Positions 13,274 to 34,115 of a stretch of 64,000 nt of DNA are shown here, piece after piece. This stretch comes from Acutalibacteraceae bacterium. Its GTDB lineage: Bacteria; Bacillota; Clostridia; Oscillospirales; Acutalibacteraceae. Below the pieces are notes generated by a model. The model was not told the origin of the DNA. It worked only from the letters and a program-made list of their open reading frames with translations, and did not search any database. The position numbers and the translations under genes are program-made. The stretch lies in the NCBI GenBank assembly GCA_045642125.1, contig JAZUIE010000012.1, positions 5,151 through 69,150 of the forward strand, read 5' to 3'. Every line of letters begins with the position of its first letter. Position 1 is the stretch's first letter.

Positions 13274-13710
13274 GTTTTTCTCCCAAAAGTTCTTAAAATT
13301 TTATCTTTTATTCGGCAGGGCAGTGCCTTAAGCATTATAAAAAACCGTCTTAAAGGTACAAAAAAGACATATTTTTTGTACTTTTTATCGGTCAAAAGAA
13401 TTTTTTTGCCGTCCTTAACGACTTCCGACAAAATGCCGATAATTTGCTCTTTTTTAACCGTTTCGGCAATATAGCGGTTATCCCCGCAGATTAGGTATTT
13501 ATTGTCGGGCAAAATTTTTATAATGCGGTGCAGTATATAGTTGCCGTTATCACGCAAAAAAAGAACGACATCGTTTTTTTGGAGTTCTCTGTCAACCTTT
13601 TTTATTACCGAAACATCGGCATCTTGTTTTATGAGCGGAAGCATGGACGTTCCCTTGCTCGTAAAAGCGACAAAGCCCGATTTTTCGATTTCAGTCTTAA
13701 AATTCGTCAT
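13270..13710 (-). CDS. S24/S26-family serine peptidase (signal-peptidase-I-like)
   Basis: 146-aa ORF with the candidate nucleophile motif GTSMLPLI and a CGDNR box. There are 4-nt overlaps at both ends. Confidence 0.55.
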   Translation of the reverse strand: MTNFKTEIEKSGFVAFTSKGTSMLPLIKQDADVSVIKKVDRELQKNDVVLFLRDNGNYILHRIIKILPDNKYLICGDNRYIAETVKKEQIIGILSEVVKDGKKILLTDKKYKKYVFFVPLRRFFIMLKALPCRIKDKILRTFGRKT

Positions 13711-14432
13711 ACCCTTAACCCGTTATAAGCGGTAAAAGCCGCTTCGTCTTCCTTGTTACAGTAAAGTGTATATAGTTTAACGGCGCCCATTATATCCGTC
13801 AAATCTTTAACGGTTTTGTTAAGCAAAGCTCCGTCAGTCGGGCGGTAACACTGTCCGAGAAGAAAAGGAAAAAGCTCTTGAAAAGAAGATTTTTCGATAC
13901 GGTTTTCTTTGCTTCTTTCAAGTCGGCAAACCGCAAAAAGCGGTACTTTTTTGTTAGTACCCGAATTTTCCTTACCCATCCAGGGGGTGCCGTAAACAAA
14001 CGGTTTGTTTTCTATCATTCTTATTATCGGCTTGTCGCCGTTTATTATAAAAGAGCCGTCTATGTTTTTAAGCCAAAGGTCTGTATGTGTTGTCTTTCCC
14101 GTACCCGATTTTGCGGTGAAAATGTAAGCCTTATTATCCTTTGCAACCGCCGAGCCGTGAAAAACAAAGGCGTCAAAGTTCGGCAAAACGGCGGCGATTT
14201 TCCGGTAAACCGCCGTGTTTTCGAGCATATAATCGGGATAGTCGGGATAGGGAATGTTTTCGTACTCGCATTCCCTTATGCTTTTTATTCTTTCGTCTTC
14301 GATGTCTTCCTTTTTTAATTCTATTTTAACATCAAAAGGAGTGTCCGTACAATAGTCTTCCGTATTTTTAAGACAGTCGAAAACGGTTGTTATTTCGAAC
14401 ACAATGTCCGCAATTTTAAGTCTTGTTTTCAT
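13707..14432 (-). CDS. HPr-kinase-related P-loop protein
   Basis: 241-aa ORF. FHGSAVAKDNKAYIFTAKSGTGKTTHT resembles the HprK C-terminal-domain P-loop seen in peptide-modification clusters. Confidence 0.6.
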   Translation of the reverse strand: MKTRLKIADIVFEITTVFDCLKNTEDYCTDTPFDVKIELKKEDIEDERIKSIRECEYENIPYPDYPDYMLENTAVYRKIAAVLPNFDAFVFHGSAVAKDNKAYIFTAKSGTGKTTHTDLWLKNIDGSFIINGDKPIIRMIENKPFVYGTPWMGKENSGTNKKVPLFAVCRLERSKENRIEKSSFQELFPFLLGQCYRPTDGALLNKTVKDLTDIMGAVKLYTLYCNKEDEAAFTAYNGLRV

Positions 14433-15486
14433 TTGATTTTTTCTCTTTAAGATACCGTCTTAAGTATGATGTTGCCATACAAAGATAGAAAGATATAACA
14501 AGCGTAATAACGCTTGTAAACTGTGAAATTTGCCAGAAATAGCCTTTACCCAAAAACGCAACGGCGGTTACTATCAAAAAACCTATGGGCTGACAAACAT
14601 AATAAATGACATTTATATCTTGCCTTTCGAGCTTTAACGATTTCTGAAGCTCGGAAACATTTTCTTTTTCGGGCAAAAAAAGCATGAAAAGCGCAATAGA
14701 AATAAAGGGGAAGCCCAAAAGGTGGGAATAATACCCCGTCATTTTGAACGCACCTAAGAAGAACACCTCAAGAACGCAAAGAATAGCCGAGCCGATTATG
14801 GCGCCCACATAAAACGAGCGGTTTAAGTTTGTGAAAAACGACATTTTTTGATGCATGATATTGCCGAGTAAAATATACGGGAGCGCTCTTGTTAAAAAGT
14901 TTCCGCCCAAATATTTATAGCCGAAAAGATTAAGACCTATAAGTGTTGAAAATTCGCCCGACAAAATGTTTAAGAGCATTAAAGCGGCAAATATCCAAAC
15001 GGAAAAGCGCAAAAGATTAAATTTATCGAGAAAATAAATTATTATGTAGGCGATAAGAAGAGCCTCGACATACCAAATTGTTGTACCTATCGGATAGGGC
15101 CAAATGTTAAGCACCAAAAATTCAAACCAAGTGCGCCAGGAAAGAAGAGATACGAAAGCGTTTTTGCCGTTTAGGGCAAAAAAGATAATATTTAAGATAA
15201 AATAACAAACGAGCAACACTAAAAAGGTTATAGCAGTTCTTTTTATTGTCCTTAATATTCTTTCGCTTCTGTTAGGCGAGTCCCTTAAAACGAGATAACC
15301 CGAAACAAGGAAAAATGTTGTCGGCACAAAGCCCAAAAGCACTTGACCGAACTTGCCGTAAACGGTCGGGAGTCCTAAAGCCTGAAAACAAAAAAGACAC
15401 ATAAGAACAAGCCGAAAACGGTCTATTGACGGACGGTAATACGAAGTCGTTACCGGTGTTTTAATGTCGTTTTTTTCGTTGTTCAT
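14416..15486 (-). CDS. Integral-membrane acyltransferase (acyltransferase-3-like)
   Basis: 356-aa ORF with about 10 hydrophobic segments. The family call rests on topology and size only. Confidence 0.5.
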   Translation of the reverse strand: MNNEKNDIKTPVTTSYYRPSIDRFRLVLMCLFCFQALGLPTVYGKFGQVLLGFVPTTFFLVSGYLVLRDSPNRSERILRTIKRTAITFLVLLVCYFILNIIFFALNGKNAFVSLLSWRTWFEFLVLNIWPYPIGTTIWYVEALLIAYIIIYFLDKFNLLRFSVWIFAALMLLNILSGEFSTLIGLNLFGYKYLGGNFLTRALPYILLGNIMHQKMSFFTNLNRSFYVGAIIGSAILCVLEVFFLGAFKMTGYYSHLLGFPFISIALFMLFLPEKENVSELQKSLKLERQDINVIYYVCQPIGFLIVTAVAFLGKGYFWQISQFTSVITLVISFYLCMATSYLRRYLKEKKSNENKT

Positions 15487-15532
15487 TGTTTTTCACCTTG
15501 TCTTTCTGAGCGAAAAAGCGATAATTTTTATA

Positions 15533-17341
15533 TTAATCGTCTTCTTCGGGAATTTCGCTTGTGTCTTTCATAGTGTAAACGGTGGGTTTGCGGTCTTTTA
15601 TGAAATAAACCCGTTTGCAGTGTCTTAAAATACTCTTTCGGTGGGTTGACACAATGCAGGTTTTATCGGGGCAGGAGAAAAGAATGTTATTAAGCACTCT
15701 TTTTTCGGTTTCGGTGTCCAGTGCGCTTGTCGCTTCGTCCAAAAGAATTACGGGAGCGTCACGCAGAACGGCACGGGCAATGGCAATTCTTTGCGCCTGA
15801 CCTTCGGAAAGACCGGCGCCCCGTTCGCCTATTTTGGCGTTTATGTTGTCGGGGTGAAGACTTATAAACTCCCAGGCACAAGCGGTTTTAAGGGCATTTA
15901 TAATTTCTTCGTCCGTTGCGTCTTCCTTAACGAGTCTTAGGTTGTCCGCTACGGTACCCGCCATAATGGAGTTGCCCTGCGGAACATAGGAAAACAGCGG
16001 TCTTAAATCGGCGGTCATATCAAAGGTGTTGCCGTCCTTATCGGTCACCGTAACGGAGCCTTCAGACGGATGTATAAGGTCAAGCAAAAGACGAAGCATA
16101 GTCGTTTTTCCTTCGCCGGACGGTCCTAAAACCGCCACTATTTCACCCGGCTTTGCCTCAAACGAGCCGTTTTCGTAAACTTTTTTGTTTTCGTTGTATG
16201 CAAAGGAAACACCGTCCATTTTTACGGTGATACCGCCGTTGTTTGCGGTGTTTATTTTGTTAAGAACTTCTTTGTTATGCCTTTCTTTCGGCAGGTCAAC
16301 AAGCTCTCTTATTCTATGCGCCGAAACGGCGGAGGTTATCATGGCGGGGAAAGTTGAAACAATGGTGTTAAACTGAGCGGTTAGGGCAGAGCGCTGTTGT
16401 AAAAAGAAGGTCATATCGCCGTACTGTATATCGCCCGACCAAAGACGCCATAAGCAGTAGCCGAAAGCGAGTAAGGCAACAAGCGAAGAAACAAGCGAAA
16501 CGGCAATATTTGCCTTTATTTCGAACTTGTTGTAATCGAGATTATATTCTTTGTACTTGCTTTGCCACCATTTAAGCTTGTTTTCGGTCGCACCCGAAAC
16601 ACCGAAAGATTTTATCATATCGAAGTTATAAAAGGTTTCGACCTCAAAAGCCATCATGCCGGAGTTCATTTCGAGAACTTTCTTTTTGTAGGCTCTCATT
16701 TTGCGCATTATCACTCTTGACATAAGCAGTAAAAACGGAGCCGAACCGAGCGCTATCCAAGCCATGTTCGGGTCGGTCTTGAAGAGCAAAATGAATGTTG
16801 CACCAAAGGTGTAAACCGATATGATTATTTTCGGTATCCAGCCGATAGCGTTACCGGCAACCGAGCCGACATCGTTGGAAAAGCGGTTAAGCAGGTCGCC
16901 GTTTGAAAAACGGTTTAATTCTTTCCACTCCGCATCAATAATCTTGCCGAAAATATTACTTTGAATGTCGTTATTAACGAAAATCGAAATTTTAAGACCT
17001 ATCCGGCTTAAAAGACTGTTTGTGAAAATCGAAAAAACATACGAAAAAATCATTATAAGGAGAAGAAACCAAAGCTTGTCCGTCTCTTTTCCGACAATAA
17101 TGTTTATAAGAAGTTTTGATACCCATGCGGCGCCGAGCGAAAGGGACGAGCCCAAAAGCCCCAAAAGGGTATAAAAAACAATAACACCTTTGTATCTTTT
17201 TGAAAAAGAAAATATCCATTTCCAATCGTCAAAAAAATCCTTAAAGGTGCCGTCATGTTGTTTGTCAAGTAAAGTTTGAAGAGAATTAAGGCGCAAAAGC
17301 TTGTTAATTCCTGTGTATTTTTGCTTTACGGAGTTTGACAT
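15533..17341 (-). CDS. ABC exporter, fused permease/ATPase
   Basis: 602-aa ORF with an N-terminal 6-TM region, Walker A GPSGEGKTT, signature LSEGQAQRIAIARA and Walker B ILLDEATSALD. There is no C39 peptidase domain. Confidence 0.9.
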   Translation of the reverse strand: MSNSVKQKYTGINKLLRLNSLQTLLDKQHDGTFKDFFDDWKWIFSFSKRYKGVIVFYTLLGLLGSSLSLGAAWVSKLLINIIVGKETDKLWFLLLIMIFSYVFSIFTNSLLSRIGLKISIFVNNDIQSNIFGKIIDAEWKELNRFSNGDLLNRFSNDVGSVAGNAIGWIPKIIISVYTFGATFILLFKTDPNMAWIALGSAPFLLLMSRVIMRKMRAYKKKVLEMNSGMMAFEVETFYNFDMIKSFGVSGATENKLKWWQSKYKEYNLDYNKFEIKANIAVSLVSSLVALLAFGYCLWRLWSGDIQYGDMTFFLQQRSALTAQFNTIVSTFPAMITSAVSAHRIRELVDLPKERHNKEVLNKINTANNGGITVKMDGVSFAYNENKKVYENGSFEAKPGEIVAVLGPSGEGKTTMLRLLLDLIHPSEGSVTVTDKDGNTFDMTADLRPLFSYVPQGNSIMAGTVADNLRLVKEDATDEEIINALKTACAWEFISLHPDNINAKIGERGAGLSEGQAQRIAIARAVLRDAPVILLDEATSALDTETEKRVLNNILFSCPDKTCIVSTHRKSILRHCKRVYFIKDRKPTVYTMKDTSEIPEEDD

Positions 17342-17394
17342 AGAGCCTCCACATTTTTAAGTTTAAGAACAGCACTTAAAGATTAAGCACCCTT

Positions 17395-17440
17395 CTTAAA
17401 ATTAAAATGCAAGTGTGCTTTTTGGGGAAAGCACACTGCA
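17395..17440 (-). terminator. Terminator/attenuator between the small-protein gene and the ABC exporter
   Basis: On the minus strand GCAGTGTGCTTT-CCCCAA-AAAGCACACTTGC is followed by ATTTTAATTTT. Confidence 0.6.
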
Positions 17441-17450
17441 AAAAAATTAA

Positions 17451-17819
17451 TTAGTTAGCTGTACCGAATGTATCCAACCACTCAAGAATTTCGCCGAGCG
17501 GAGTACCCGACATACCGGAGAAGACAATGAAGTTGGAGTTCGGGCCGTAAGCCTCAAAGTCGATGGAATCAAGAGTCTCGCCGAGTGTGAAGTCAACAAC
17601 GCCGCCAACTTCGGTATATCCGAGAATCTCTGTGTACTTACCGCCGGTAACGGTCGGAAGACCCGTGTAACTTGTATAACCACTCATTCTTTCGGTTTTT
17701 CCGCTTGCGCCGAAGTAGTTAGCAGGATTACCGGTGTAGAAAAGTGCATCGGGAAGTCCGCTTGTCTGGATAACATCGGCAGAGTCGAAAGTTACAAAGC
17801 TTAATTTTGCATTAGTCAT
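17451..17819 (-). CDS. Small (122-aa) uncharacterised protein, first gene of the operon
   Basis: The ATG at 17817-17819 lies 10 nt after AGGAG, whereas the track's upstream start at 17864 lacks an RBS. The sequence is MTNAKLSFVTFDSADVIQTSGLPDALFYTGNPANYFGASGKTERMSGYTSYTGLPTVTGGKYTEILGYTEVGG... It is G/T/Y/S-rich with no signal peptide or double-glycine leader. Confidence 0.55.
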   Translation of the reverse strand: MTNAKLSFVTFDSADVIQTSGLPDALFYTGNPANYFGASGKTERMSGYTSYTGLPTVTGGKYTEILGYTEVGGVVDFTLGETLDSIDFEAYGPNSNFIVFSGMSGTPLGEILEWLDTFGTAN

Positions 17820-17988
17820 TAGACATAATCTCCTTTCTTCTTGAGAAAAGTTTTTAGGGTTCAACTTTCAGCTGATAAATTGAAACCTTCGTCCAAAAGT
17901 CTTTCCCAACAAAGACAAAGGTCGAAACTTCTCCCAAAAAATTACTTAATAAAGGCAATAAAAACACTACCGCATATTAAGTTAATTA

Positions 17989-18104: not shown

Positions 18105-18191
18105 GGAGAGGTATCGAAGTGGTCATAACGAGGCGGTCTTGAAAACCGTTTGGGGCAACCCACAAGGGTTCGAATCCCTTCCTCTCCGCCA
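18105..18191 (+). tRNA. tRNA-Ser (anticodon UGA)
   Basis: Acceptor GGAGAGG/CCTCTCC, anticodon arm GCGGT-CTTGAAA-ACCGT, long variable arm, T arm AAGGG-TTCGAAT-CCCTT, encoded CCA. Confidence 0.92.
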
Positions 18192-18515: not shown

Positions 18516-18606
18516 GGAGTAGTACTCAAGCTGGTGACGAGGCACCCCTGCTAAGGGTGTAGGTCGGGTAACCGATGCGAGAGTTCGAATCTCTCCTACT
18601 CCGCCA
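18516..18606 (+). tRNA. tRNA-Ser (anticodon GCU)
   Basis: Acceptor GGAGTAG/CTACTCC, anticodon arm ACCCC-TGCTAAG-GGGTG, long variable arm, T arm GAGAG-TTCGAAT-CTCTC, encoded CCA. Confidence 0.92.
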
Positions 18607-18610
18607 AAAA

Positions 18611-18660
18611 AGAAATCGCTTTTGTCTACCAAGGCAAAGGCGATTTCTTTACGCATTTTA
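18611..18660 (+). terminator. Terminator-like hairpin after tRNA-Ser(GCU)
   Basis: AGAAATCGCTTTTG ... CAAAGGCGATTTCT (14 bp including one G-U) is followed by TTACGCATTTT. The U-run is weak. Confidence 0.45.
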
Positions 18661-19024
18661 GGGCAAAATACAGGCAAAATCGCATAAAATAAGGCAAAAC
18701 GGGCTTCGAGACGGTCATCACGGCTATCCCGGAGCCCGTTTTTTCGTTTCCGGCACCGAAAACCAGCCGAAAACGCTGGTGTACTTTTTCGATTTCTTTA
18801 CGCTGCAAAGAAATTCTGCTCTGAATAGGCGTAGGGATTTGAACTAAAAAAGTGATGAAAAAATTGGCTAAATCACGAAATCGTTACTTCCACCTCTTGA
18901 AAATCGACAGAATTCATGTTATTCTATTTGTGACTTTTTATACCTACTGATAAGAGGGATTTGAGTGAGACAAGAAAATCGCCAGAAAATATCGCAACAC
19001 ATTGGAAAAGAACGGCGTGCATAG

Positions 19025-19201
19025 GGGCGCCGAGCCAATGGCGAAGCCGACGTCAGCAACACGGATGCCAAAGTCGTAATAGCGCTGCTCATCGGAGCCG
19101 ACCGCGCCGAGCGTTTCTGCGACGGAGCATTCCAGGAGTTCATCGAGAACGGCAGCATCGCACGCTGGCTGGAACGCCTGGCCAAAATTGATCTACAATA
19201 A
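19025..19201 (+). pseudogene. Possible C-terminal remnant of a truncated gene
   Basis: The frame ending at TAA 19199-19201 reads ...NGEADVSNTDAKVVIALLIGADRAERFCDGAFQEFIENGSIARWLERLAKIDLQ. This looks protein-like, but it has no start codon after the upstream stop at 19022-19024. Confidence 0.25.
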
Positions 19202-19231
19202 AAAACAATCGTTTGAAGGACGGTTTTAGAA

Positions 19232-19786
19232 ATGGGCGAATACATAAAAAAGAAAAAAGAAATGAATTTTAGCAACGTCGGTGCGCTTCAGCCCGTCGTA
19301 AATGTGGTGAACGAAGCAGCCGCAGCATTGAACGACAAGACAAGAACGATAAGAGAAAGCGCGATCCCCGAAGTTCTCGCTGGAGCATTGGGCGCTGGTA
19401 TAGGTGGTGTCGTATCATTTGCGGCGCTTTATGGCCTCGGAACGGTCGTCGGATTGAGCGCAGCAGGTATAACGTCCGGCCTTGCTACTGCAGGCGCGAT
19501 TGTGGGAGGCGGAATGGTGGCCGGAGTGTTTGTGCTGGCGGCGCCGGTAGCAATTTTGGCAGCCGGAGGCGTAGGATTAGCATCACATCTCAAAAACAAG
19601 CAGCTAAAGCAAGAAAAAGAGCGCTTATATAAAGAGGTGTTGAAAAAGCACGAGGCCATCATCAAAGCATTGAAAGACGAAGCAGACGCCAGCAAGGAAC
19701 GCATCGATTATTTGCAGAGCTTGAACATTTTGCTAACACAGGCAATTAAAGACCTGCAACATGACCTTGGTGTAACTGCAGCATGA
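19232..19786 (+). CDS. Glycine-zipper membrane protein with C-terminal coiled coil (uncharacterised)
   Basis: 184-aa ORF with RBS AAGGA 11 nt upstream. The Gly/Ala-rich hydrophobic core is VLAGALGAGIGGVVSFAALYGLGTVVGLSAAGITSGLATAGAIVGGGMVAGVFVLAAPVAILAAGGVGLA, followed by a charged helical tail. Its stop overlaps the next start (ATGA). Confidence 0.6.
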   Translation: MGEYIKKKKEMNFSNVGALQPVVNVVNEAAAALNDKTRTIRESAIPEVLAGALGAGIGGVVSFAALYGLGTVVGLSAAGITSGLATAGAIVGGGMVAGVFVLAAPVAILAAGGVGLASHLKNKQLKQEKERLYKEVLKKHEAIIKALKDEADASKERIDYLQSLNILLTQAIKDLQHDLGVTAA

Positions 19787-21144
19787 AAAAATACAGCTAT
19801 TCGGAAAAGGAACAAGACATAAACACCGTTCTAAGCCGTCAGCAAAAGCAGCTTGACTCGGTGATTATACCGGCTGTGGATGAGGAAAAGATTAGCGAAA
19901 GTGAGGCAATCCTTCAATCATTAGGATATTCCCTGCCTGAAAAGCGAGCCACAGAAATCGTCCGGGAAAAGAAGGAAATCATCGTCCCTTCCTGGGAACA
20001 GCTATTGAGCACAGCAAAAGACGACGTTGGCGACGGTCATGCATTAACCGAGCTATTCACAGACGACGAGATTAGAGACAACGCGCTATACATAAGAACG
20101 CTGGCAAGCGATTACAACGCATTACACCGCCTCGATTTGATCGATTATTCGATATGCGCCATCGCCGGAATATTGTCCGGCGCTCTCGACATCTTATTGG
20201 TCGGAATACCAAAGGCCACTCCAGACGGACTAAAAGCGGGAACGTTATCCAACTACATCCGCGACCAATTCAACAAAAAATTCTCGAAGGATGAAATGGA
20301 GAAACTCGCCAACTCCAAGGAAAGCAAAGTCCCATTTGATGCGCAGGACAACCGGCATACAACAGAGCACGTAGAAGGACTTTCGGCATATTACCATAGA
20401 ATGCTGTCGCTCGGCCACGATCCGCTCCTGGGCTTTGTCGTCGGAGTTTTCGACATCATAACCGGCAGAATGACCACAATAGATAAGACAGGAAAGTTTG
20501 TTTCACAGGTCATGGAGAACTATGCCGACCGCAAAGAAACAAACATTTTCGCAGCGATAGCAAAGCAGTTTATTCATTTCAAATCGGATATCACAACGTC
20601 CATGGGGCTACCAGCGCCACTGATGAGCTTGTTCAATTTGCTCCAGTTCGGCAGCATTGGAGAAGAAGAACAAACCATAGCTGAAATCGTACAGGGCATG
20701 TACTACGAAGGATACGACTTCATCCATTTCTGTTCGACATCGATCCCCGTCCTTTTGACCGAAGTCATTGTGCGCATCAGCTACGCAATAAGGCGGCTAC
20801 GAGAAGGCCACTCAATAAAAGAGTCGATACCGTTCTCGTTAAACAGAGAGAAGCATCCGAAGCTGGCTACGATGCTATTTATAGCACACTCAGCAGCCAC
20901 GGCAATTAACGCTGGCAAGGTTTATTTCACGAAAAACCCGATGGCTATCAATTACCCTCAGTGGGTATCGTTCGCCAAATATTCCTACAAACAATTAAAA
21001 TGGGCGCTGATCGAAAAGCCCATGCTGCGGGACAAATACATCCAAGGATACATGGACGCAGAATTCGCAGACATACTTGAATCAGTCGACGAAACAACAA
21101 AACGCTTTTCGGAGACCTACACATTTATCCTCGCGGAGGAATAA
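19783..21144 (+). CDS. Uncharacterised 453-aa protein with several hydrophobic segments
   Basis: Long ORF translationally coupled to the upstream gene. I recognise no family. Features seen are a hydrophobic stretch DYSICAIAGILSGALDILLVGI and the motif GLSAYYHRMLSLGHDPLLGFVVGVFDIITG. Confidence 0.65.
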   Translation: MKKYSYSEKEQDINTVLSRQQKQLDSVIIPAVDEEKISESEAILQSLGYSLPEKRATEIVREKKEIIVPSWEQLLSTAKDDVGDGHALTELFTDDEIRDNALYIRTLASDYNALHRLDLIDYSICAIAGILSGALDILLVGIPKATPDGLKAGTLSNYIRDQFNKKFSKDEMEKLANSKESKVPFDAQDNRHTTEHVEGLSAYYHRMLSLGHDPLLGFVVGVFDIITGRMTTIDKTGKFVSQVMENYADRKETNIFAAIAKQFIHFKSDITTSMGLPAPLMSLFNLLQFGSIGEEEQTIAEIVQGMYYEGYDFIHFCSTSIPVLLTEVIVRISYAIRRLREGHSIKESIPFSLNREKHPKLATMLFIAHSAATAINAGKVYFTKNPMAINYPQWVSFAKYSYKQLKWALIEKPMLRDKYIQGYMDAEFADILESVDETTKRFSETYTFILAEE

Positions 21145-21161
21145 CGAAAAGAGGACGGCAC

Positions 21162-21371
21162 ATGGCACAAAGCACAATGAACAACGAGGCCGACCTCACG
21201 CCAGAGGAAAAGCGCCGGCAGCTATACGACCGGCAGGTGGAACTACTCAGAACGTTTTTGGAGCACGGAACAATTAGCCAAGCGCAGTATGATAAAAGCT
21301 ACGGCGACCTGACCGAAAAGATGGGCTATGGCGACAAAGGGAAAAACGACAAAAGTGATTTCTTACCTTGA
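21162..21371 (+). CDS. Small SHOCT-like protein
   Basis: 69-aa ORF with RBS AGAGGA. ELLRTFLEHGTISQAQYDKSYGDL resembles the SHOCT short C-terminal domain pattern. Confidence 0.45.
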   Translation: MAQSTMNNEADLTPEEKRRQLYDRQVELLRTFLEHGTISQAQYDKSYGDLTEKMGYGDKGKNDKSDFLP

Positions 21372-21402
21372 ATATACGACGTTTGGTCGTTCTTATACAA
21401 AA

Positions 21403-21432
21403 AACAACATCGCATTGCGGTGTTGTTTTTTT
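21403..21432 (+). terminator. Rho-independent terminator closing the three-gene cassette
   Basis: AACAACATCGC-ATT-GCGGTGTTGTT followed by TTTTT. Confidence 0.7.
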
Positions 21433-21598: not shown

Positions 21599-21710
21599 CT
21601 TTACTTTGCTGTGTAAGTCTTTACTTTTTTCCTAAAATCTTTACTTGTTTTTATAAAAATCTTTACTTTTTCGGTCGTTTTTAACTTATTTTTATAAAAA
21701 CTTTACTTTT
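21599..21710 (+). repeat. Five phased direct repeats CTTTACTT(T/G)(T/G) upstream of the HTH-Fic gene
   Basis: Copies start at 21599, 21619, 21639, 21661 and 21701, giving spacings of 20, 20, 22 and 40 bp. Two copies are embedded in a longer repeat TTTTTATAAAAA(T)CTTTACTTTTT. The -10 TATAAT lies at about 21725-21730. Confidence 0.6.
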
Positions 21711-21753
21711 TGTGAGAAATGGGGTATAATCATTTTAGATGGGAAGTGATTAG

Positions 21754-22665
21754 GTGTATTCATACAAAAAATTAGAGCAAATGCTTAAAGCAAAAGGCCA
21801 TACAAAGTCGGAACTTTGCAAGGTGTTGGGCGTTTCTTCGAGAACTCTCGCAAAAATCGCAAAGGGCGAAAAGATAGCCGACAGAGTTTTGATTAGAATT
21901 GCCGATTTTCTCGGGTGCGGTGTAAACGACCTTTTTGAAAGCATTTCGCAAAACAAGCTTTTAAGTGTTTTAAGGGAAGAAAAAAACGCTAAAATTTCGG
22001 GCGGAATTTACCACGAATTGCAGGTTCGAATGACCTATAACTCAAATCATATTGAGGGCAGTAAACTAAGCGAAGATCAGACCCGTCTTATTTTTGAAAC
22101 AAACACGGTTGATGCCGGTGACGGCGTACCGGTTGACGACATTATAGAAACGGTTAACCACTTTCGTGCTGTCGACTATTGTTTGGATATTGCAAACGAA
22201 GAGCTTTCGGAAGAAATAATAAAAGAGCTTCACCGCATTTTGAAGCAAGGCACTAAGGACGGGACTCTTTTGTGGTTTTCCGTAGGTGATTATAAAAAAA
22301 GAGCAAATGTTGTCGGCGGAAGCGAAACGGCAAAACCAAAAGATGTACCGAAAAAAATGCAGGAGCTTTTAAGTGCTTATAACAAAAAAGAAAACAAAAC
22401 ATTTTTTGATATTGTCAAGTTTCATTCAGATTTTGAGCATATACATCCGTTTCAGGACGGAAACGGCAGGGTGGGACGGCTTATAGCACTTAAAGAATGC
22501 CTTAAAATAAACGAAGTCCCGTTTATAATCGAAGACACTAAAAAAATGTTTTATTACAGAGGCCTTTCAAAATGGAACGAAGACAGCGGCTATTTAACCG
22601 ACACCTGTCTTGACGGGCAGGACACCGTAAAAAGACTCCTTAAAGCGCTTGATATTGAACTGTAA
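21754..22665 (+). CDS. Fic-family protein with N-terminal XRE-type HTH
   Basis: 303-aa ORF with a GTG start. The HTH region is LEQMLKAKGHTKSELCKVLGVSSRTLAKIAKG. The Fic active-site motif is HPFQDGNGRVGRL. An S-x-x-x-E-G inhibitory-helix motif (SNHIEG) lies upstream of the core. Confidence 0.85.
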   Translation: MYSYKKLEQMLKAKGHTKSELCKVLGVSSRTLAKIAKGEKIADRVLIRIADFLGCGVNDLFESISQNKLLSVLREEKNAKISGGIYHELQVRMTYNSNHIEGSKLSEDQTRLIFETNTVDAGDGVPVDDIIETVNHFRAVDYCLDIANEELSEEIIKELHRILKQGTKDGTLLWFSVGDYKKRANVVGGSETAKPKDVPKKMQELLSAYNKKENKTFFDIVKFHSDFEHIHPFQDGNGRVGRLIALKECLKINEVPFIIEDTKKMFYYRGLSKWNEDSGYLTDTCLDGQDTVKRLLKALDIEL

Positions 22666-25205: not shown

Positions 25206-25466
25206 ATGCAAAAAACCGAAGGCTTAAAAAAAGCAGCCGAAAGCTTACTTAAAGAGCAGTTACCGAAAGCCGAAGCAGATTCGCTTAGAAAAGAAGGCTT
25301 TTTACTTAAAAAGCCCAACAGAGAAACGGCACTTTTGATAGCTCTCTACAAAAAAGCAAAAAACGGCGACCTTTCCGCTTTTAAGGAAATACGCAGTATT
25401 GTGTCGGGAGAAAATGCCGATGCAAAAAAGAAAGCGGTGATAATCGTTGACGACATCAAAGCTTAA
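25206..25466 (+). CDS. Phage terminase small subunit, C-terminal part only
   Basis: ALLIALYKKAKNGDLSAFKEIRSIVSGEN resembles the C-terminal region of TerS proteins. The same frame is open only back to 25143 (stop at 25140-25142), so there is no room for the N-terminal DNA-binding domain. Confidence 0.45.
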   Translation: MQKTEGLKKAAESLLKEQLPKAEADSLRKEGFLLKKPNRETALLIALYKKAKNGDLSAFKEIRSIVSGENADAKKKAVIIVDDIKA

Positions 25467-26751
25467 AACCTCTTCGGTCATAGGACAGGGCTATGAAGAG
25501 TTTTGGAACTGCAAGGCGAGATACAGAGTGCTAAAGGGCGGAAAGGCGTCAAAGAAGAGCACGACTACGGCGCTTAACTTTATTTTCCGTCTTATGAAAT
25601 ACGAAAAAACCAACCTGCTTGTTGTACGCCGTATTATGAGCACTCACCGAGATTCAACCTTTGCCCAGCTTAAATGGGCGCAGGAGGCTTTGGGTGTATC
25701 GCACCTTTGGGTCAACACGGTATCGCCTATGGAAATGACCTTCATTCCGACAGGGCAAAAGATACTGTTCAGAGGTTTTGACGATGTATTAAAACTCGCT
25801 TCAACCACCGTATCTAACGGTTACCTTAATTTTGTTTGGATAGAAGAAGCGTTCGAAATCGAGAGCGAAGAAGACTTTAACAAGCTCGATTTATCGGTGC
25901 CGAGAGGAGCCGTCCCCAAAGAAATTTTTAAGCAGACGACACTCACCTTTAACCCTTGGAGTGAAACACACTGGCTTAAAAAACGGTTTTTTGACAAGAA
26001 GCCTAAAAACTGCAAAACCTTTTCGGTTAACTACCTTATAAACGAATACCTTGACAAAACCGATTTGGAAGTTTTTGAGGAAATGAAAAGGACAAACAAA
26101 AGAAAATACGATGTTGCGGGGCTTGGTAACTGGGGAATATCGGAAGGGCTTGTTTACGAAAATTTTTCGGTAGATACCCTTACGGTTAAAAAAGAAGACG
26201 AATACAAGTGGAAAAACTTTTTCGGGCTCGACTACGGGTATTCAAACGACCCTACGGCATTTATCGCCTTTGCCGCAAACCCCATAGACAAAAAGGTTTA
26301 CATCTTTGACGAGTTTTACAAGAAGAAAATGTTAAACTCGGACATAGCAAACGAGATAATAAAGCGTGGCTATAAAAAAGAACGGATACGGGCGGACTCT
26401 GCGGAGCCTAAGTCGAATGACGACCTTAAAAGGCTCGGAATACAAAGAATACTGCCTTCGGTAAAAGGTCGGGACAGCATATTAAACGGAATAGCGCAGA
26501 TTTGCGAATACGAAATTATTGTAAGCCCGACCTGCGTTAACACCATAAGGGAATTATCGAGCTACTGCTACGATAAAACGAAACCCGAAAACGGACAGAT
26601 TATGCCTAAGGACTGCGACAACCACCTTTGTGATGCGTTGCGGTATGCTTTTTATGATGTTAAATTCTTTAAGCCGAAAAAAGAAGAACCGGTAAAGGCC
26701 GACTTTTCGGGTGTTTATAAAAACGATTTTTACAAAGGATGGAATGTATGA
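25447..26751 (+). CDS. Phage terminase large subunit (PBSX/Terminase_3-like)
   Basis: 434-aa ORF with a TTG start. Motifs: GQGYEEFWNCKARYRVLKGGKASKKS (P-loop region), VWIEEAFEI (Walker B-like), and nuclease-half motifs GLDYGYSNDPTAF and DALRYA. Confidence 0.82.
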   Translation: MTTSKLKTSSVIGQGYEEFWNCKARYRVLKGGKASKKSTTTALNFIFRLMKYEKTNLLVVRRIMSTHRDSTFAQLKWAQEALGVSHLWVNTVSPMEMTFIPTGQKILFRGFDDVLKLASTTVSNGYLNFVWIEEAFEIESEEDFNKLDLSVPRGAVPKEIFKQTTLTFNPWSETHWLKKRFFDKKPKNCKTFSVNYLINEYLDKTDLEVFEEMKRTNKRKYDVAGLGNWGISEGLVYENFSVDTLTVKKEDEYKWKNFFGLDYGYSNDPTAFIAFAANPIDKKVYIFDEFYKKKMLNSDIANEIIKRGYKKERIRADSAEPKSNDDLKRLGIQRILPSVKGRDSILNGIAQICEYEIIVSPTCVNTIRELSSYCYDKTKPENGQIMPKDCDNHLCDALRYAFYDVKFFKPKKEEPVKADFSGVYKNDFYKGWNV

Positions 26752-26942
26752 CAGTTTACACAATAATTTGCACATTTTTATTTTCTTTGCTTTTGGGCGC
26801 CGACATACTTTACGGTCTGCTTTTTATAAGAGCCGTTAAGGTGTCGCCCGTAAAGAAAGAACAAAACGGCAGTCTTCCGTTTGCCGAACTAAACGGCGAA
26901 ATTAAAAACTTTTTAAGCTATGACGGAAGCGAACAGTCCTGA
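26739..26942 (+). CDS. Small single-TM hypothetical protein
   Basis: 67-aa ORF overlapping the terL stop, with one hydrophobic helix. There is no other support. Confidence 0.3.
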   Translation: MECMTVYTIICTFLFSLLLGADILYGLLFIRAVKVSPVKKEQNGSLPFAELNGEIKNFLSYDGSEQS

Positions 26943-26958
26943 TTTTCGGAGGTAAGTT

Positions 26959-27246
26959 ATGGAAGAAAACGAAATTATTAAAGAAGAAATTAAAGAAACA
27001 AAAGAAAACGAAAAAGAAACAGAAACAAGAGAGCCTGACGATAAACAAAAAAGGCTCGAAATGTTGGCTCAAAAGAGGGGCGTTACGGTCGAAGAATACC
27101 TATCGGAGCTTGAAAAAAGTCTTATAACAAAGGAAGAAATCGTATCCGCCCAAAACAGAAGCACCGGTTCTCAGACAAAAAACGAAAGTATGGGCTTTGA
27201 CCCTACGGGAACGGAATTTGTCAAGGGAATTTGGGGCAAAAACTAA
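26959..27246 (+). CDS. Acidic helical protein, possible scaffolding protein
   Basis: 95-aa Glu/Lys-rich ORF directly upstream of the capsid gene, with RBS GGAGG. Confidence 0.4.
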   Translation: MEENEIIKEEIKETKENEKETETREPDDKQKRLEMLAQKRGVTVEEYLSELEKSLITKEEIVSAQNRSTGSQTKNESMGFDPTGTEFVKGIWGKN

Positions 27247-27264
27247 AGAAATGAGGAAAATTTT

Positions 27265-28440
27265 ATGTCAATTAATTCAATAGAAAACGCATCAAGATAT
27301 TCAGACGAGCTTGATAAAGTATTTGCGCAAAAGAGTCAGACCGGCTTTTTTGCCGACAACACACTTGCGACTAAATTTGTAGGCGCAAAAACAGTTATTA
27401 TCCCCGATGTTGATTTCCAAGGCCTTGCGGACTACGACCGTGACAACGGCTTTACAAGAGGCGCTATCAATGTTTCAAACACATCTTACACAATGGCTAT
27501 GGACCGTGCCCGTTCACTCTCCATTGACCGTGAAGATATGGACGAAACGGGCATTGCAAACCTTGCCGGTAAGATTTTGGGCGAGTATGTAAGAACAAAG
27601 GTTGTACCCGAATGTGACGCTTATGTTCTTTCGAAGCTTTCCGCTCTTGCAGAAGCGAGAGCAAACACCGTAAGCGGTGATGTTGAAAAGCCTTACGAAA
27701 CACTCTTAAAGCTTATAAGCGAAGTACAAAGCAAGGTAGGTTTTGACGAAGAGCTTGTCGCTTTCGTTGACAGTTCAATGTATGCGATACTCCAAAACTC
27801 TTCGGAAATTTCGCACCTTATCTGCGTATCCGACTTTAAGCAGGGCGATGTTGACTTAAAGGTTAAGACCATTAACGGTGTTGCTATCATTCCGGTAGTT
27901 TCCGAGAGAATGAAGACCGCCTATACCTTTAACAACGATACCGCCGGTGGCTTTACCCCCGATGCAGACGCAAAAGAGGTTTATATGCTCGTATGCCCCA
28001 AGTCGGGAGCGCATCTGGTTAAGAAAACCGAGCAGATGAGAATTTTCACACCCGAACAGAACATTGATGCCGATGCATACAAGTTCGATTACAGAATTTA
28101 CTACGATGTATTCGTTAAGAAGAGCGGACTCGATGCTGTTTGGGCATGGATATCTCCCGACATTAACATTACCGCACAGCCCGAAGACAAAACAGTAACC
28201 GAAGGCTCAATAAGCGGTTCGTTAAGTGTAACCGCACAAAGTGACGGCGACTTAACATATCAGTGGTATTCCTGCAGTGATACCGATATGACCGATGCCG
28301 TTAAAATAGCAAACGCAACCTCTTCTTCGTTTACCATTCCGACAACTCTCGAAGAGGGAAATTACTTCTACTTTGTTAAGATTACCGTTGACTCACTTGC
28401 AAGTACCTTAAGTGATGTTGCGACAGTAACCGTAGAATAA
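27265..28440 (+). CDS. Phage major capsid protein with C-terminal Ig-like domain
   Basis: 391-aa ORF in the capsid position with a strong RBS. The C-terminal ~90 aa (ITAQPEDKTVTEGSISGSLSVTAQSDGDLTYQWYSC...YFYFVKITVD) has an Ig-like repeat pattern. Confidence 0.7.
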   Translation: MSINSIENASRYSDELDKVFAQKSQTGFFADNTLATKFVGAKTVIIPDVDFQGLADYDRDNGFTRGAINVSNTSYTMAMDRARSLSIDREDMDETGIANLAGKILGEYVRTKVVPECDAYVLSKLSALAEARANTVSGDVEKPYETLLKLISEVQSKVGFDEELVAFVDSSMYAILQNSSEISHLICVSDFKQGDVDLKVKTINGVAIIPVVSERMKTAYTFNNDTAGGFTPDADAKEVYMLVCPKSGAHLVKKTEQMRIFTPEQNIDADAYKFDYRIYYDVFVKKSGLDAVWAWISPDINITAQPEDKTVTEGSISGSLSVTAQSDGDLTYQWYSCSDTDMTDAVKIANATSSSFTIPTTLEEGNYFYFVKITVDSLASTLSDVATVTVE

Positions 28441-28509
28441 ACTTAAAACCGTAGGTCTTTGCCCTAAGTCTTTTAGGGCAAAGGCTATTGTCGGGGGAAA
28501 GGAGAAAAA

Positions 28510-30099
28510 ATGATAAATTTAGAGCCTAAAAGCATATATAACGAATACACCCTTTCGGTAGATTTCAAGAATTCTTTGGGTGATAAGGGGCTTTATGAGC
28601 AGACCGACATCAACGAAAGATTTTTTGCGGGTGACCAGTGGTACGGCGCAAAATGCGGAAATTCCCGACCGCTTGTAAGACACAATGTCATTAAAAGAAT
28701 AGGAGATTTTAAGCTTTCGCAGATTTTGGGAAGCGGTGTGGATATAGACTATTCGGTTGACGGCACCGCCGACATAAACCACTCTAAAACGAGTCTTAAA
28801 AAACGGTTTTCCGGCTTAAGGCTTAAGGGTGAACTTTCGAGTGACGAAATAGCCGCCGTAAGGGAAGCCTTTAACAACTACTTTTCGGTTACGGCGCTTC
28901 GCACGGGACTTGACGGACTTTGCGCAAAAGTTTTAAGAAACGCCTATATTTCGGGAACGGGAATCATATATACTTATTGGGACCCCGATGTTAAAACGGG
29001 TATAATTAAAAACTCTGTCCCTGTTACGGGCGATATTAAATGCGAAGTTCTCAATGTGAAAAATGTTTACTTTGCGAGTCCCTTTGAAGAAAATATCGAA
29101 GCCCAGCCCTACATTATTATAGCTTCGGTAAGAGAAGAAAAGGATGTACGGTACGAAGCGGAAAAATACGGCGCAGACGAGTTTACGATTAAAAATATAA
29201 AGGGCGACCGAAACGGCAAAATTCTTGTACTTACAAAGCTTTATAAGGAAAGAAAAGAAGACGGAAGCGAAACGGTTATGTGTGTTAAGGTAACCGAAAA
29301 AGCAACCGTAAGACCCGCTTTTGATACGCTTTTGCGCAGATATCCGCTCTCGGTTTTCAAGTGGGAAGAGCGAAGCGGTCTTGTTTACGGCGAAAGCGAA
29401 ATTACCTACCTTATACCGAACCAAATCGCCATAAACAGAATGATAACCGCAAATGTATGGGCATCGATTTTAAGCGGTATGCCTATGATGGTGGTAAACG
29501 GAGATACGGTAACGGGCGAAATAACAAATGAGCCCGGTCAGGTAGTTAAGGTTTACGGTACAAACGAAGATGTTGCAGGGGCCATTAAGTATGTAACACC
29601 GCCCGACAGCGCAATAAATTTCGGAAACAATGTAAATATGCTAATCGAAAACACGCTCGTTCAAAGCGGAGCAAACGAAGTGGCATTAGGCGACAGCCGA
29701 GCCGACAATATGAGTGCTCTTAATGCCATGCGAAAGGCGGCGGTTATGCCGCTCGAACTCGCAAAAAACCGCTATTTGGGTTTAGTTTGCGATATTGCTC
29801 TTACATGGGCGGACTTTTGGATAACGCAGTACAAACAAAGAAAGATTAAAATTTACGAAAACGGCAGAGCGGTTTATATTCCGTTTAATGCCGACAGATA
29901 TAAAGATTTAAGCTTTTCGGCAACGGCAAAAGAGAAAACGCAAAAAACGGACTCGGAAAAAACTCAGCTTTTGCTTACTCTCTTCGACAAGGGTGTTATT
30001 TCAAAAGCAGAGCTTATAAAAAGACTGCCTGACGGTTTAATTGACGAAAAAGAAGAGCTTTTTTGTGAAAATAAAGAAGAAAAGGGGGAAGAAAAATGA
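28510..30099 (+). CDS. Phage portal protein
   Basis: 529-aa ORF. INERFFAGDQWYG near the N-terminus resembles portal proteins, and the size is appropriate. Confidence 0.65.
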   Translation: MINLEPKSIYNEYTLSVDFKNSLGDKGLYEQTDINERFFAGDQWYGAKCGNSRPLVRHNVIKRIGDFKLSQILGSGVDIDYSVDGTADINHSKTSLKKRFSGLRLKGELSSDEIAAVREAFNNYFSVTALRTGLDGLCAKVLRNAYISGTGIIYTYWDPDVKTGIIKNSVPVTGDIKCEVLNVKNVYFASPFEENIEAQPYIIIASVREEKDVRYEAEKYGADEFTIKNIKGDRNGKILVLTKLYKERKEDGSETVMCVKVTEKATVRPAFDTLLRRYPLSVFKWEERSGLVYGESEITYLIPNQIAINRMITANVWASILSGMPMMVVNGDTVTGEITNEPGQVVKVYGTNEDVAGAIKYVTPPDSAINFGNNVNMLIENTLVQSGANEVALGDSRADNMSALNAMRKAAVMPLELAKNRYLGLVCDIALTWADFWITQYKQRKIKIYENGRAVYIPFNADRYKDLSFSATAKEKTQKTDSEKTQLLLTLFDKGVISKAELIKRLPDGLIDEKEELFCENKEEKGEEK

Positions 30100-30446
30100 C
30101 GGGATATGATGTTTACAAATCGGCGGTTTTGAAACTCGGTATGAACACCGAAAACGGCACCGCCGAAAGAGAAGCAGCCTTTAAGGCGGCGGCTGTCGAT
30201 GCCATAAATGTCATAGGTGACGACCTTGTTAAAATGAAGCCGATTAAAGACCTGCTTGACGAAATAAGCATAGACGAAAAGGGCTTTACCGCTCTTTCTT
30301 ACGGTGTTGCAATGATGCTTTCGGTACTGTATGCCGACACCGAAAGGAATGTTATTATGACCGCCATTTACAACGCAAGGCGCGCGGCATATTTGTCGGA
30401 AACTAAAAATGTGAAAGACATTTCCCCTTATTCTTTGGAGGCGTAG
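30096..30446 (+). CDS. Hypothetical phage protein (116 aa)
   Basis: Translationally coupled to the portal gene (ATGA overlap). Confidence 0.45.
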   Translation: MTGYDVYKSAVLKLGMNTENGTAEREAAFKAAAVDAINVIGDDLVKMKPIKDLLDEISIDEKGFTALSYGVAMMLSVLYADTERNVIMTAIYNARRAAYLSETKNVKDISPYSLEA

Positions 30447-30449
30447 CCT

Positions 30450-32480: not shown

Positions 32481-32484
32481 TAAT

Positions 32485-33618
32485 TTGAAAAGGGTGCTTC
32501 TTATAACCTTTTGTTTTATTGTGTTTTTGTCGGGTTGCAAAAGCACCCCTAAAAAAGCCCAAACGAAAACCGAAAAGGATATTTATATAAAGGGTGTTTT
32601 CATAACGCAAAACGAAATAAAGCCGTATCTTGTTAAAAACACCAAAAAAAGCATAAAAGGTCTTGCAAACGAGCTTGACGGGTGCGGTATTACCGATGTT
32701 TTTCTCCAGACAAGAGCATACGGCGAAAGTCTTGCAAAAATAAAAAGCTTTCCGCAGTTAAGTTATGCAAAAAGCTTAAACTTCGATGTGCTTTCCTACA
32801 TAATAAAGACCTTTAAGGAGAAAAGCATTAGGACACATATCTGGATAAACCCGTTAAGGATAAAAACGGACGGCACCGATAAAAACGAGCTTAATAAAGA
32901 AAGTCCCGTATATAAAGTGTTAAGTAACTCCGACACAGAAGACGACAGTCTTGTTTGCTTTACCGAAAACGGAATTTATCTGAACCCCGCAAGTGACAAG
33001 GCGGTGGGGCTTATAACCGAAGAAGTAAGAGAAATAATAAACAAGTATAAACCTGCGGGAATAAGCTTTGACGATTACTTTTATCCGACAGCGGACGAAA
33101 GCTTCGATAGTGAGTCATACGGACTTTATAAGTCGTTATGCGAAAGTCCGCTTTCGCTTTCGGAGTGGCGCATAGCCAACATAAACTCCCTTATTTCTTC
33201 GGTTTATACGGCGGTTAAGTTTTGCGATAAGGACACCCTTTTTACGGTAAGTCCCGCCGCTTCGGCTAAGCGGAGTAAAGAAGAACTGTTTGCCGATGTT
33301 TACACTTGGTGTAAAAACGGGTGCATAGACATAATAATTCCGCAGCTGTATTTCGGGTTTAATTATCCCGACAAAAACTACTCCTTTTTGTCGCTTTTGT
33401 CCTTTTGGGATAACTTATCAAAGGAAACGGACACAAAAACCGCTTCGGCTCTTGCGACCTACAAAATAGGCACCGACTCTCCGCCCGACAAGGAAGAATG
33501 GGCGGACGGAAAGAGTGTTATAAAAAAGGAAACGGACTGTATAAGAAAAGACAAAACGCAAAGCGGATATGTATATTTTTCTTTAACATCCTTTAGAAAA
33601 TACAAAAATCTCTCTTGA
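32485..33618 (+). CDS. Lipoprotein, glycoside-hydrolase-like (GHL10/YngK-like)
   Basis: TTG start, with lipobox FLSGC in MKRVLLITFCFIVFLSGCKS. The TIM-barrel-like pattern is recalled from the GHL10 family, and this assignment is weak. Confidence 0.5.
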   Translation: MKRVLLITFCFIVFLSGCKSTPKKAQTKTEKDIYIKGVFITQNEIKPYLVKNTKKSIKGLANELDGCGITDVFLQTRAYGESLAKIKSFPQLSYAKSLNFDVLSYIIKTFKEKSIRTHIWINPLRIKTDGTDKNELNKESPVYKVLSNSDTEDDSLVCFTENGIYLNPASDKAVGLITEEVREIINKYKPAGISFDDYFYPTADESFDSESYGLYKSLCESPLSLSEWRIANINSLISSVYTAVKFCDKDTLFTVSPAASAKRSKEELFADVYTWCKNGCIDIIIPQLYFGFNYPDKNYSFLSLLSFWDNLSKETDTKTASALATYKIGTDSPPDKEEWADGKSVIKKETDCIRKDKTQSGYVYFSLTSFRKYKNLS

Positions 33619-33642
33619 AACTATCTTCAAGAGAGATTTATT
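33607..33642. terminator. Bidirectional terminator
   Basis: AATCTCTCTTGAA-ACTATC-TTCAAGAGAGATT overlaps the stop codon at 33616-33618. Confidence 0.6.
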
Positions 33643-33646
33643 GATA

Positions 33647-33988
33647 TTAAAGTCCGAAGCTTACGGACAGAGCCTTATCCACCATATTCATAGAAAGGTT
33701 GTCAAGACTGCCCATTTTTTCTTTAAGCCGTCTTTTGTCTATGGTTCGCACCTGCTCTAAAAGAACTACGGAGTCTTTTTGGAGTCCGCAGCCGTTTGCG
33801 TCAACCTTAATATGCGTAGGGAGATTTGTTTTGTCTTGCTGACTTGTTATCGCCGCCGCTATTACCGTAGGGCTGTACTTGTTGCCGACATTGTTCTGTA
33901 TTATAAGAACGGGTCTTACTCCGCCCTGCTCGGAACCGACAACGGGACTTAAATCAGCGTAATATATTTCTCCTCGTTTTATATTCAT
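33647..33988 (-). CDS. mazF: MazF/PemK-family endoribonuclease toxin
   Basis: 113-aa [53 protein letters not shown]..., closely resembling EndoA/MazF. Confidence 0.88.
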
Positions 33989-34115
33989 TTCGATTTCACA
34001 CTCCGAAAAACGTCTAAAAGTATTTTTGCCATAAAAGTCTTTTTTTAATCAGACTTTTAATAATTCCTTCAATATTATTTTATTCAAGAGTGTGATAAGG
34101 GTGAATTTATCGGGC

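Follow-up and report, generated by a model that had tools for sequence, protein, structure and literature searches.

Bunzi is a two-gene system that was shown to protect against phage (Millman et al. preprint, 2022), and the same preprint described its component BnzA as containing a TerB domain, two transmembrane helices, and a domain that interacts with lipids. The mechanism of Bunzi is unsolved. Our literature search found no mechanistic paper on BnzA or BnzB, and the only proposal, "membrane surveillance", is based on the presence of TerB in BnzA. In this study, we analyzed a Bunzi-like locus in a stretch of 64,000 nucleotides (nt) from an Acutalibacteraceae bacterium (assembly GCA_045642125.1, contig JAZUIE010000012.1, positions 5,151 to 69,150; hereafter the window). 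The locus had been described from its sequence alone, in what we call the original prediction, as a three-gene cassette of unknown function. All three open reading frames (ORFs) were confirmed on the plus strand, encoding proteins of 184, 453, and 69 amino acids (aa), each of which has many homologues; they were designated genes A, B, and C. Our results slightly favor the view that A and B together constitute a minimal, TerB-less anti-phage module of the Bunzi family, the defence role being proposed from homology, whereas gene C is read as a passenger.

Genes A and B and their relationship to Bunzi

The 453-aa protein B, which the original prediction was unable to place in any family, was assigned with the aid of PADLOC and BLASTP. 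The PADLOC model of BnzB (PDLC03834) matched B with an E value of 8.6e-66 (221 bits), residues 44-433 being aligned to profile positions 90-502 of 504, and the full-length BnzB of Lactococcus showed 29% identity to B over 306 aa (E 5e-34). On both comparisons, B is a clear homologue of BnzB. The BnzB-like superfamily is sizeable: at 50% identity, its clusters numbered 899 when the cutoff was E <= 1e-3 and 155 when it was E <= 1e-30. Neither B nor the products of A and C gave a significant match in Pfam or NCBIfam; B had no sequence match in the PDB, where a profile search by sequence returned only coiled-coil noise.

An AlphaFold2 model of B was built on a 74-sequence alignment reaching down to 24% identity. 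The model showed a predicted local distance difference test score (pLDDT) of 93.2 and a predicted template modelling score (pTM) of 0.85, and was all-alpha with a few short strands. Foldseek searches with this model found no counterpart in the PDB (best E 1.2, TM ~0.1-0.15) or in BFVD (best E 0.08). An earlier model from a shallow alignment had a pLDDT of 64, and its Foldseek result was meaningless and was discarded.

The invariant columns of B were D186, H205, H212, H265, D269, P279, and M306, and the nearly invariant ones included R206, D213, S268, D224, Y307, D312, and H315. The segment HVEGLSAYYHRMLSLGHDPLLGFVVGVFDIITG, which had been singled out earlier as distinctive, indeed corresponds to residues 196-228 and contains the invariant H205 and H212. 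The polar Asp/His set suggests a putative catalytic or metal-binding site. For the H...HD...HxxxD pattern, sites of the HD-domain type and of the zinc phospholipase C / P1-nuclease type were considered and rejected because no fold match supports them. The helix at residues 119-145 is hydrophobic enough for membrane entry. Among close relatives, the core of B (residues 117-410) was 81% identical, as against 40-44% for the N-terminal 116 and the C-terminal 43 residues; such variable termini around a conserved core are compatible with a fast-evolving recognition surface.

Hydropathy analysis of protein A revealed a hydrophobic stretch of 78 residues (residues 43-120; Gly + Ala, 46%) followed by a charged tail of 64 residues (residues 121-184). 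A had been predicted to consist of an extended Gly/Ala zipper and a coiled coil. The hydrophobic stretch and the charged tail agree with this description, but the number of small-xxx-small motifs (21, compared with a mean of 20.2 in shuffled sequences) was as the composition predicts, and the evidence for the putative coiled coil consists of the best heptad register, with 11 of 18 a/d positions hydrophobic, and of weak Pfam matches to coiled-coil families. Despite the composition-level motif count, the sequence of A is strongly conserved.

The PADLOC model of BnzA matched A with an E value of 1.1e-8 at profile positions 311-408 of 544 only, which means that A covers approximately 18% of the model. 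This region spans the Gly-rich membrane segment and extends to where the coiled coil begins. When A was examined for a BnzA-type membrane segment with a helical tail, the feature was present and aligned to the same region of the model. A PADLOC match of A to LeoBC (E 0.0077) was weak and was treated as compositional.

The relationship between A and BnzA was bridged by a 370-aa protein (L098:189-1301), which is encoded upstream of a distant BnzB-like gene (P0189). This protein matched Pfam TerB at the gathering score (E 3.6e-5). Its N-terminal half aligned to positions 135-313 of canonical BnzA (hhalign probability 91%, E 1e-6), and its C-terminal half aligned to residues 61-182 of A via the GLSAAGITSGLA motif and the coiled coil (E 5e-6). 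Because this protein joins both forms, A is best read as corresponding to the Gly-zipper/coiled-coil core of BnzA, with neither the TerB-like module at the N-terminus nor the extension at the C-terminus. No TerB was detected in A by Pfam or NCBIfam, and a protein of 184 aa leaves no room for the N-terminal half of BnzA. Since Pfam finds no TerB in canonical BnzA either, the absence of TerB from A is shown by the missing region and not just by the missing match.

The association between A and B was examined at 80 genomic loci, defined by B relatives at 61-84% identity. These loci spanned Lachnospiraceae, the Streptococcus mitis group, Erysipelotrichaceae, Acetobacterium, and others, with a few bins of metagenome-assembled genomes (MAGs) labelled as Bacteroidales; the closest genome with the cassette was an Acutalibacteraceae MAG. 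Gene A was located upstream of B on the same strand at 78 of the 80 loci (72-90% identity), either adjoining B or parted from it only by A', a truncated A paralogue of 100-130 aa that occurs between A and B in some lineages. Among B relatives at 28-38% identity, all four of those sampled had an A-type gene directly upstream. One of the products, truncated at the end of its contig, has 142+ aa, and the others have 156, 179, and 370 aa; three are short forms, and the 370-aa product is the TerB form of L098. The order of bnzA before bnzB on the same strand was kept in the window, in Lactococcus, on the IncHI2A plasmid described below, and at the distant loci. Furthermore, natural A-B fusions were found. 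In P0156, a part colinear with residues 10-163 of A (E 5e-16) lies ahead of a BnzB-like part; P0158 has the same layout as judged by eye, and P0209 consists of an N-terminal domain, a Gly zipper, a coiled coil, and BnzB.

No third gene recurred generally among the A-B loci, the partners being lineage-specific only. In some lineages, a membrane-anchored Xre-type helix-turn-helix (HTH) protein is encoded upstream of A. The HTH protein of the resulting four-gene variant carries an HTH_3 domain and a C-terminal Gly-rich helix (L012:6600-7106, L010, L033, L037, L042, L047, and L100:246-743); this is an unusual regulator architecture, which could couple transcription to the membrane state. As for the predicted three-gene cassette, the three genes probably share one transcript here, but only A and B travel together elsewhere, and the co-occurrence of all three fails for C, leaving a unit of two genes. 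The pair moves horizontally between Bacillota lineages.

Proposed mode of action and alternative explanations

B relatives were found on 491 plasmid records, 436 of which were conjugative, with Enterobacter, Salmonella, and Klebsiella as the main sources. The plasmid inspected as an example, the IncHI2A plasmid pSKLX33221_mcr9, carries a gene for a 165-aa "membrane protein" followed by that for a 462-aa B, and the pair adjoins HipBA. A survey of Salmonella with PADLOC and DefenseFinder placed "Bunzi" mainly on IncHI plasmids, IncHI1 being named. Because of this placement, the short-A form has probably already been labelled Bunzi by these programs, although the example inspected was IncHI2A and that of the survey IncHI1. 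In phage records, a four-gene variant was located at the record end of the Acutalibacteraceae phage NatCom_11578, just beyond the endolysin gene, and a composite prophage record of S. suis also carries the pair, plus Tet(M). In the S. suis locus L101 (MN270261.1, 52533-63888), the A-type and B genes have Tet(M) on one side and an ESAT-6/EssB type VII secretion cluster on the other, and the record thus resembles a mobile element combined with a prophage.

If A and B act as a Bunzi-family module, A would be embedded in the cytoplasmic membrane as a helical hairpin and oligomerize via its Gly zipper and coiled coil. It would dock B at the membrane, A being either the anchor or the effector. B would sense an infection cue, such as a phage protein or a membrane disturbance, via its fast-evolving N- and C-terminal segments, and would then act via D186, H205, H212, H265, and D269, either by catalysis on a membrane-associated substrate or by triggering the zipper helices to permeabilize the membrane. 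The expected outcome would be abortive infection, in which membrane failure, or growth arrest or death of the infected cell, precedes the release of phage. In canonical BnzA, TerB would serve as an optional input module outside this core machine.

A defence role had already been suggested for the cassette. It agrees with the homology of B to the BnzB of the validated Bunzi system, the position of the genes in a strain-variable islet beside a tRNA gene, and the presence of Fic/PDC-S04 and HsdR neighbors; the three-gene unit in which it had been framed was not retained, and the function is drawn from homology. Further points in favor of a Bunzi-family module are the linkage and natural fusions of A and B, the bridging protein, the phage-borne copies, the GC content of the cassette, and the conserved core and invariant residues of B. 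We also put forward, tentatively and with considerably less confidence, a wider proposal. The short Gly-zipper protein with a BnzB-like partner might represent the ancestral state of a large membrane-associated immune family (~900 clusters at 50% identity) and, by a wide margin, its most frequent form, whereas TerB-bearing Bunzi would be an elaborated lactobacillal offshoot. B might then be a new kind of enzyme whose fold is unsolved and whose Asp/His active site works at the membrane; the core mechanism would be independent of TerB.

Several observations weigh against the reading of A and B as a defence module of the Bunzi family. Direct BLASTP between A and lactococcal BnzA found nothing, hhalign gave a probability of only 23% when the profiles of the short-A family and canonical BnzA were compared, and the PADLOC BnzA match of A falls in a compositionally biased region. 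On direct evidence alone, this match could be compositional; consequently, the homology of A rests on the single bridging protein, the architecture, and the gene order. No fold match of B backs any specific enzymatic or pore-forming activity, and its Asp/His residues may not share one site. A plasmid-borne Bunzi homologue from Lactococcus, when tested, gave no protection against any of the phages used (PMC11381338). Finally, the 128 genes flanking 26 of the loci were not uniformly defence-related, since ordinary genes occurred among them beside those for type I methyltransferases, AbiEii, and serine recombinases. The defence- and mobility-type flanks themselves count in favor of the module, as do the neighbors Fic/PDC-S04 in the window, HsdR in contig L094, and HipBA on the IncHI2A plasmid. 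As the flanking genes were called by a crude longest-ORF rule and the library scans give family counts only, the defence-island evidence is semi-quantitative.

Gly-zipper membrane segments are common in small membrane toxins. It is conceivable, though in our judgment unlikely, that A and B represent a membrane toxin and its partner, which serve as an addiction or stabilization module for plasmids and islands, with phage defence being incidental. The abundance of the pair on large conjugative enterobacterial plasmids, its position beside HipBA in the plasmid inspected, the overlapping two-gene layout resembling a toxin-antitoxin pair, and the failure of the lactococcal Bunzi homologue to protect against phages are all in line with this explanation. 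However, both proteins are large for a classical type II toxin-antitoxin system, neither contains an antitoxin-like DNA-binding domain as searched with Pfam and NCBIfam, the natural A-B fusions are a poor fit to a toxin with a labile antitoxin, and a canonical member of the family has been validated as a defence system.

An accessory function for a phage or mobile element, namely superinfection exclusion or holin-like timing of lysis, appears improbable. It would account for the copy beyond the endolysin gene of NatCom_11578 and that in the S. suis prophage record, and five of 11 canonical BnzA proteins weakly match the holin family Phage_holin_3_6 (best E 0.045). These holin matches are far below threshold, however, and phage-borne copies are rare (3 of 50,697 phage records), most copies being chromosomal or plasmid-borne with no phage genes nearby. 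Moreover, superinfection exclusion is itself a form of defence, so that this explanation overlaps with the one we prefer.

We give little credence to a non-immune module for envelope stress or membrane maintenance akin to the Ter (tellurite-resistance) systems. The TerB domain of the longer family members and the membrane-embedded nature of A would fit such a role, but the distribution is patchy and reflects horizontal transfer, with 61-84% identity across distant Bacillota (Lachnospiraceae, Streptococcus, and Erysipelotrichaceae), the locus is strain-variable, and the version in the window is without TerB. Least credible of all is an obligate three-gene system, corresponding to the cassette of the original prediction, with the 69-aa protein as a regulatory or immunity component. 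C is probably co-transcribed with A and B (a 17-nt gap, its own ribosome-binding site, and a shared terminator), and both of the closest relatives (L001 and L094) have kept it. However, 79 of the 80 A-B loci lack C, the downstream genes vary by lineage, and its family occurs near serine recombinases and other cargo in the P0342 contigs examined.

Layout of the islet and neighboring genes

The features of the locus are summarized in Table 1. Most of the layout given in the original prediction was confirmed: the stop codon of A overlaps the start codon of B (ATGA), B and C are 17 nt apart, a strong terminator follows C, and the cassette is linked to tRNA genes and adjacent to a Fic gene. The 17-nt spacer holds an AGAGGA ribosome-binding site, and the two tRNA-Ser genes lie closely upstream of the cassette. 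A, B, and C are probably expressed here as one transcript, for which the site carrying TTGAAA is the probable promoter of the operon. Transcription of A-B-C ends at the terminator, which is also where the mobile block has its right edge. The GC content of the cassette was 47-50%, compared with 40.6% for the window.

Table 1 Features of the A-B-C locus and its surroundings (positions in the window).
Feature	Position	Strand	Description
tRNA-Ser(TGA)	18105-18191		Upstream of A
tRNA-Ser(GCT)	18516-18606	+	Left anchor of the islet; ARAGORN and Rfam
Leader	18604-18865	+	Conserved, ~260 nt; two terminator-like hairpins
Promoter-like site	18897-18925	+	TTGAAA, 17 nt, TG-TATTCT; consensus scan
GC-rich frame without start codon	18960-19201	+	Between promoter and A; ends ...FIENGSIARWLERLAKIDLQ-stop / ...FQEFIENGSIARWLERLAKIDLQ-stop
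Gene A	19232-19786	+	184 aa; BnzA-core protein (best reading): N-terminal helix, Gly/Ala membrane segment, putative coiled-coil tail
Gene B	19783-21144	+	453 aa; BnzB-like, all-alpha
Gene C	21162-21371	+	69-aa ORF, small-protein family
Intrinsic terminator	~21398-21432	+	RNAfold: 15-bp stem, free energy (dG) -17.6 kcal/mol, then T-run
Four direct repeats AAAtCTTTACTTTTT	21615-21711	+	Repeat search
Promoter-like site before Fic gene	21702-21730		
HTH-Fic gene	21754-22665	+	Pfam Fic (1.3e-19), HTH_26, HTH_3; PADLOC candidate PDC-S04 (1.2e-103)

Comparison with closely related contigs delimited the islet. Contig L094 (97% identical) matched the window at 18619-21399 and diverged at the terminator, the next gene after the divergence encoding a type I HsdR C-terminal domain. 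Contig L093, from the same species (98.5% identical), matched the window from 34079 down to ~22753, and its last ~106 nt differed. From these sharp junctions, the variable islet extends from the 3' end of tRNA-Ser(GCT) to ~22753 and contains two modules, leader-A-B-C and Fic. A strain-variable locus with defence or mobility flanks, which was looked for, was thus present (junctions at 21399 and ~22753). The block common to other genomes likewise starts at the 3' end of tRNA-Ser(GCT). No integrase gene was found in the islet, and tRNA adjacency was not general, since only one of the 12 loci scanned (L001) had a tRNA gene nearby.

The leader, which travels with the cassette, was 85.6% identical to L001:7076-7336, where it follows a tRNA-Lys gene, and 97% identical in L094. 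In the window and in L001, it starts exactly at the 3' end of the tRNA gene, although the two tRNA genes are different. Between the window and L001, the conservation of the leader (86%) exceeded that of the coding region (77%). One of its hairpins was found by a scan (18762-18780) and the other was read from the sequence; an Rfam search with the leader gave no family match. The -35 box and a TGTTAT -10 region are kept in L001 and L094. A GC-rich insert of ~280 nt in the 5' untranslated region is present in the window and L094 but not in L001. The GC-rich frame was 52% identical to an unannotated stretch (L007:13434-13577) and is probably a gene remnant, for which no family assignment was found.

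Among the 80 A-B loci, gene C occurred at one (L001); it was also present in the near-identical contig L094. The earlier SHOCT-like label for C was not supported. C resembles SHOCT in being short and helical and in having, as judged by eye, a G-[TA]-I-[ST]-x-x-[QE] segment, but it had no Pfam match to SHOCT even at E <= 10, and belongs to a family of its own with 160 homologues of ~60 aa. In the P0342 contigs, members of this family directly follow large serine recombinases and precede variable cargo (SRA/NUDIX/ThsB-TIR and PDDEXK genes). In the P0337 contigs, most of the neighboring genes belong to sugar metabolism, and one contig has a resolvase fragment. We read C as a lineage-specific passenger of mobile elements and not as a third component. 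Two of the P0342 contigs (L084:5001-8323 and L085) carry a serine-recombinase fragment and the small protein followed by SRA (ScoMcrA-like), NUDIX, a 217-aa protein, and ThsB-TIR, with HipA adjoining; this run looks like defence cargo on a recombinase-borne element.

The HTH-Fic gene was adjacent to A-B at none of the 80 loci and is a separate module in the same variable islet. The AAAtCTTTACTTTTT copies upstream of it are spaced by 20, 22, and 40 nt and overlap the -35 box of the promoter-like site before the gene. They look like candidate operators for the N-terminal HTH of the Fic protein itself, which would imply autoregulation.

Two further gene clusters were observed in the window. A phage-derived block (25206-34000) lies right after ACT/DUF711 genes and comprises a small ORF, a large terminase gene, and ORFs of 391, 529, 116, 676, and 377 aa. 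The terminase belongs to Terminase_3 and is 45-50% identical to TerL of Bacillus and Staphylococcus phages, and most genes of the block are without a Pfam match. The block is also present in L093 (98.5% identity), with a PemK toxin gene at its far end. Upstream of the tRNA genes, the minus strand (13707-17864) encodes a protein that resembles ABC transporters by eye (602 aa), an Acyl_transf_3 membrane protein (356 aa), and a P-loop-like protein (241 aa), and contains a 137-aa ORF without a Pfam match. This cluster may be involved in the modification and export of a peptide or bacteriocin.

Comparison with known systems

The conserved and widespread unit consists only of the Gly-zipper/coiled-coil core and BnzB, to which TerB, the HTH-membrane regulator, and the small A paralogue are optional additions. 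The search for the mechanism is thereby narrowed to the A-B interface, which the fusions support, and to the invariant Asp/His set of B, and the 2-kb locus offers a small testable construct. The comparison also explains an unannotated pair of a "membrane protein" and a "hypothetical protein" on hundreds of clinically relevant enterobacterial plasmids, the inspected example being IncHI2A.

The TerB systems Shango (SngA) and Dionysus (DinB) have in common with the locus only the proposed membrane-associated surveillance; A is without TerB, and there was no PADLOC sequence match to either system. The four-gene variant X-A-A'-B of Lachnospiraceae/Clostridia, including that of phage NatCom_11578, is much closer, with A 80-87% and B 62-66% identical to those of the window. 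It differs in the HTH_3 membrane protein upstream and in A' (50% identical to A over 82 aa), neither of which is present in the window. The pair on the IncHI-type plasmid also consists of a short A (48% identity, E 3e-29) and B (~30% identity) and shows the same partial PADLOC matches to BnzA and BnzB as the pair of the window; it differs in belonging to another phylum, in its diverged coiled-coil tail, and in having HipBA instead of Fic as the neighbor.

With Bunzi itself, the locus shares the BnzB homologue, the partner gene directly upstream on the same strand encoding a Gly-rich membrane segment and then a coiled coil, and the location on mobile elements. The reference pair on the Lactococcus plasmid pLLHPA consists of BnzA (549 aa, 421 bits) and BnzB (513 aa, 509 bits). 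Canonical BnzA is ~546-556 aa long, whereas A is 184 aa, without the TerB-like N-terminal part (~310 aa) and the C-terminal part (~135 aa). On the BnzB model, B scored 221 bits as against 509 bits for canonical BnzB, and its N-terminus is different. In addition, canonical BnzA was confined to Lactobacillales (38 matches), in contrast to the 899 clusters of the BnzB superfamily. Because the TerB domain published as a feature of BnzA is missing from A, the pair is regarded as a TerB-less variant of Bunzi rather than as a plain member of the system.

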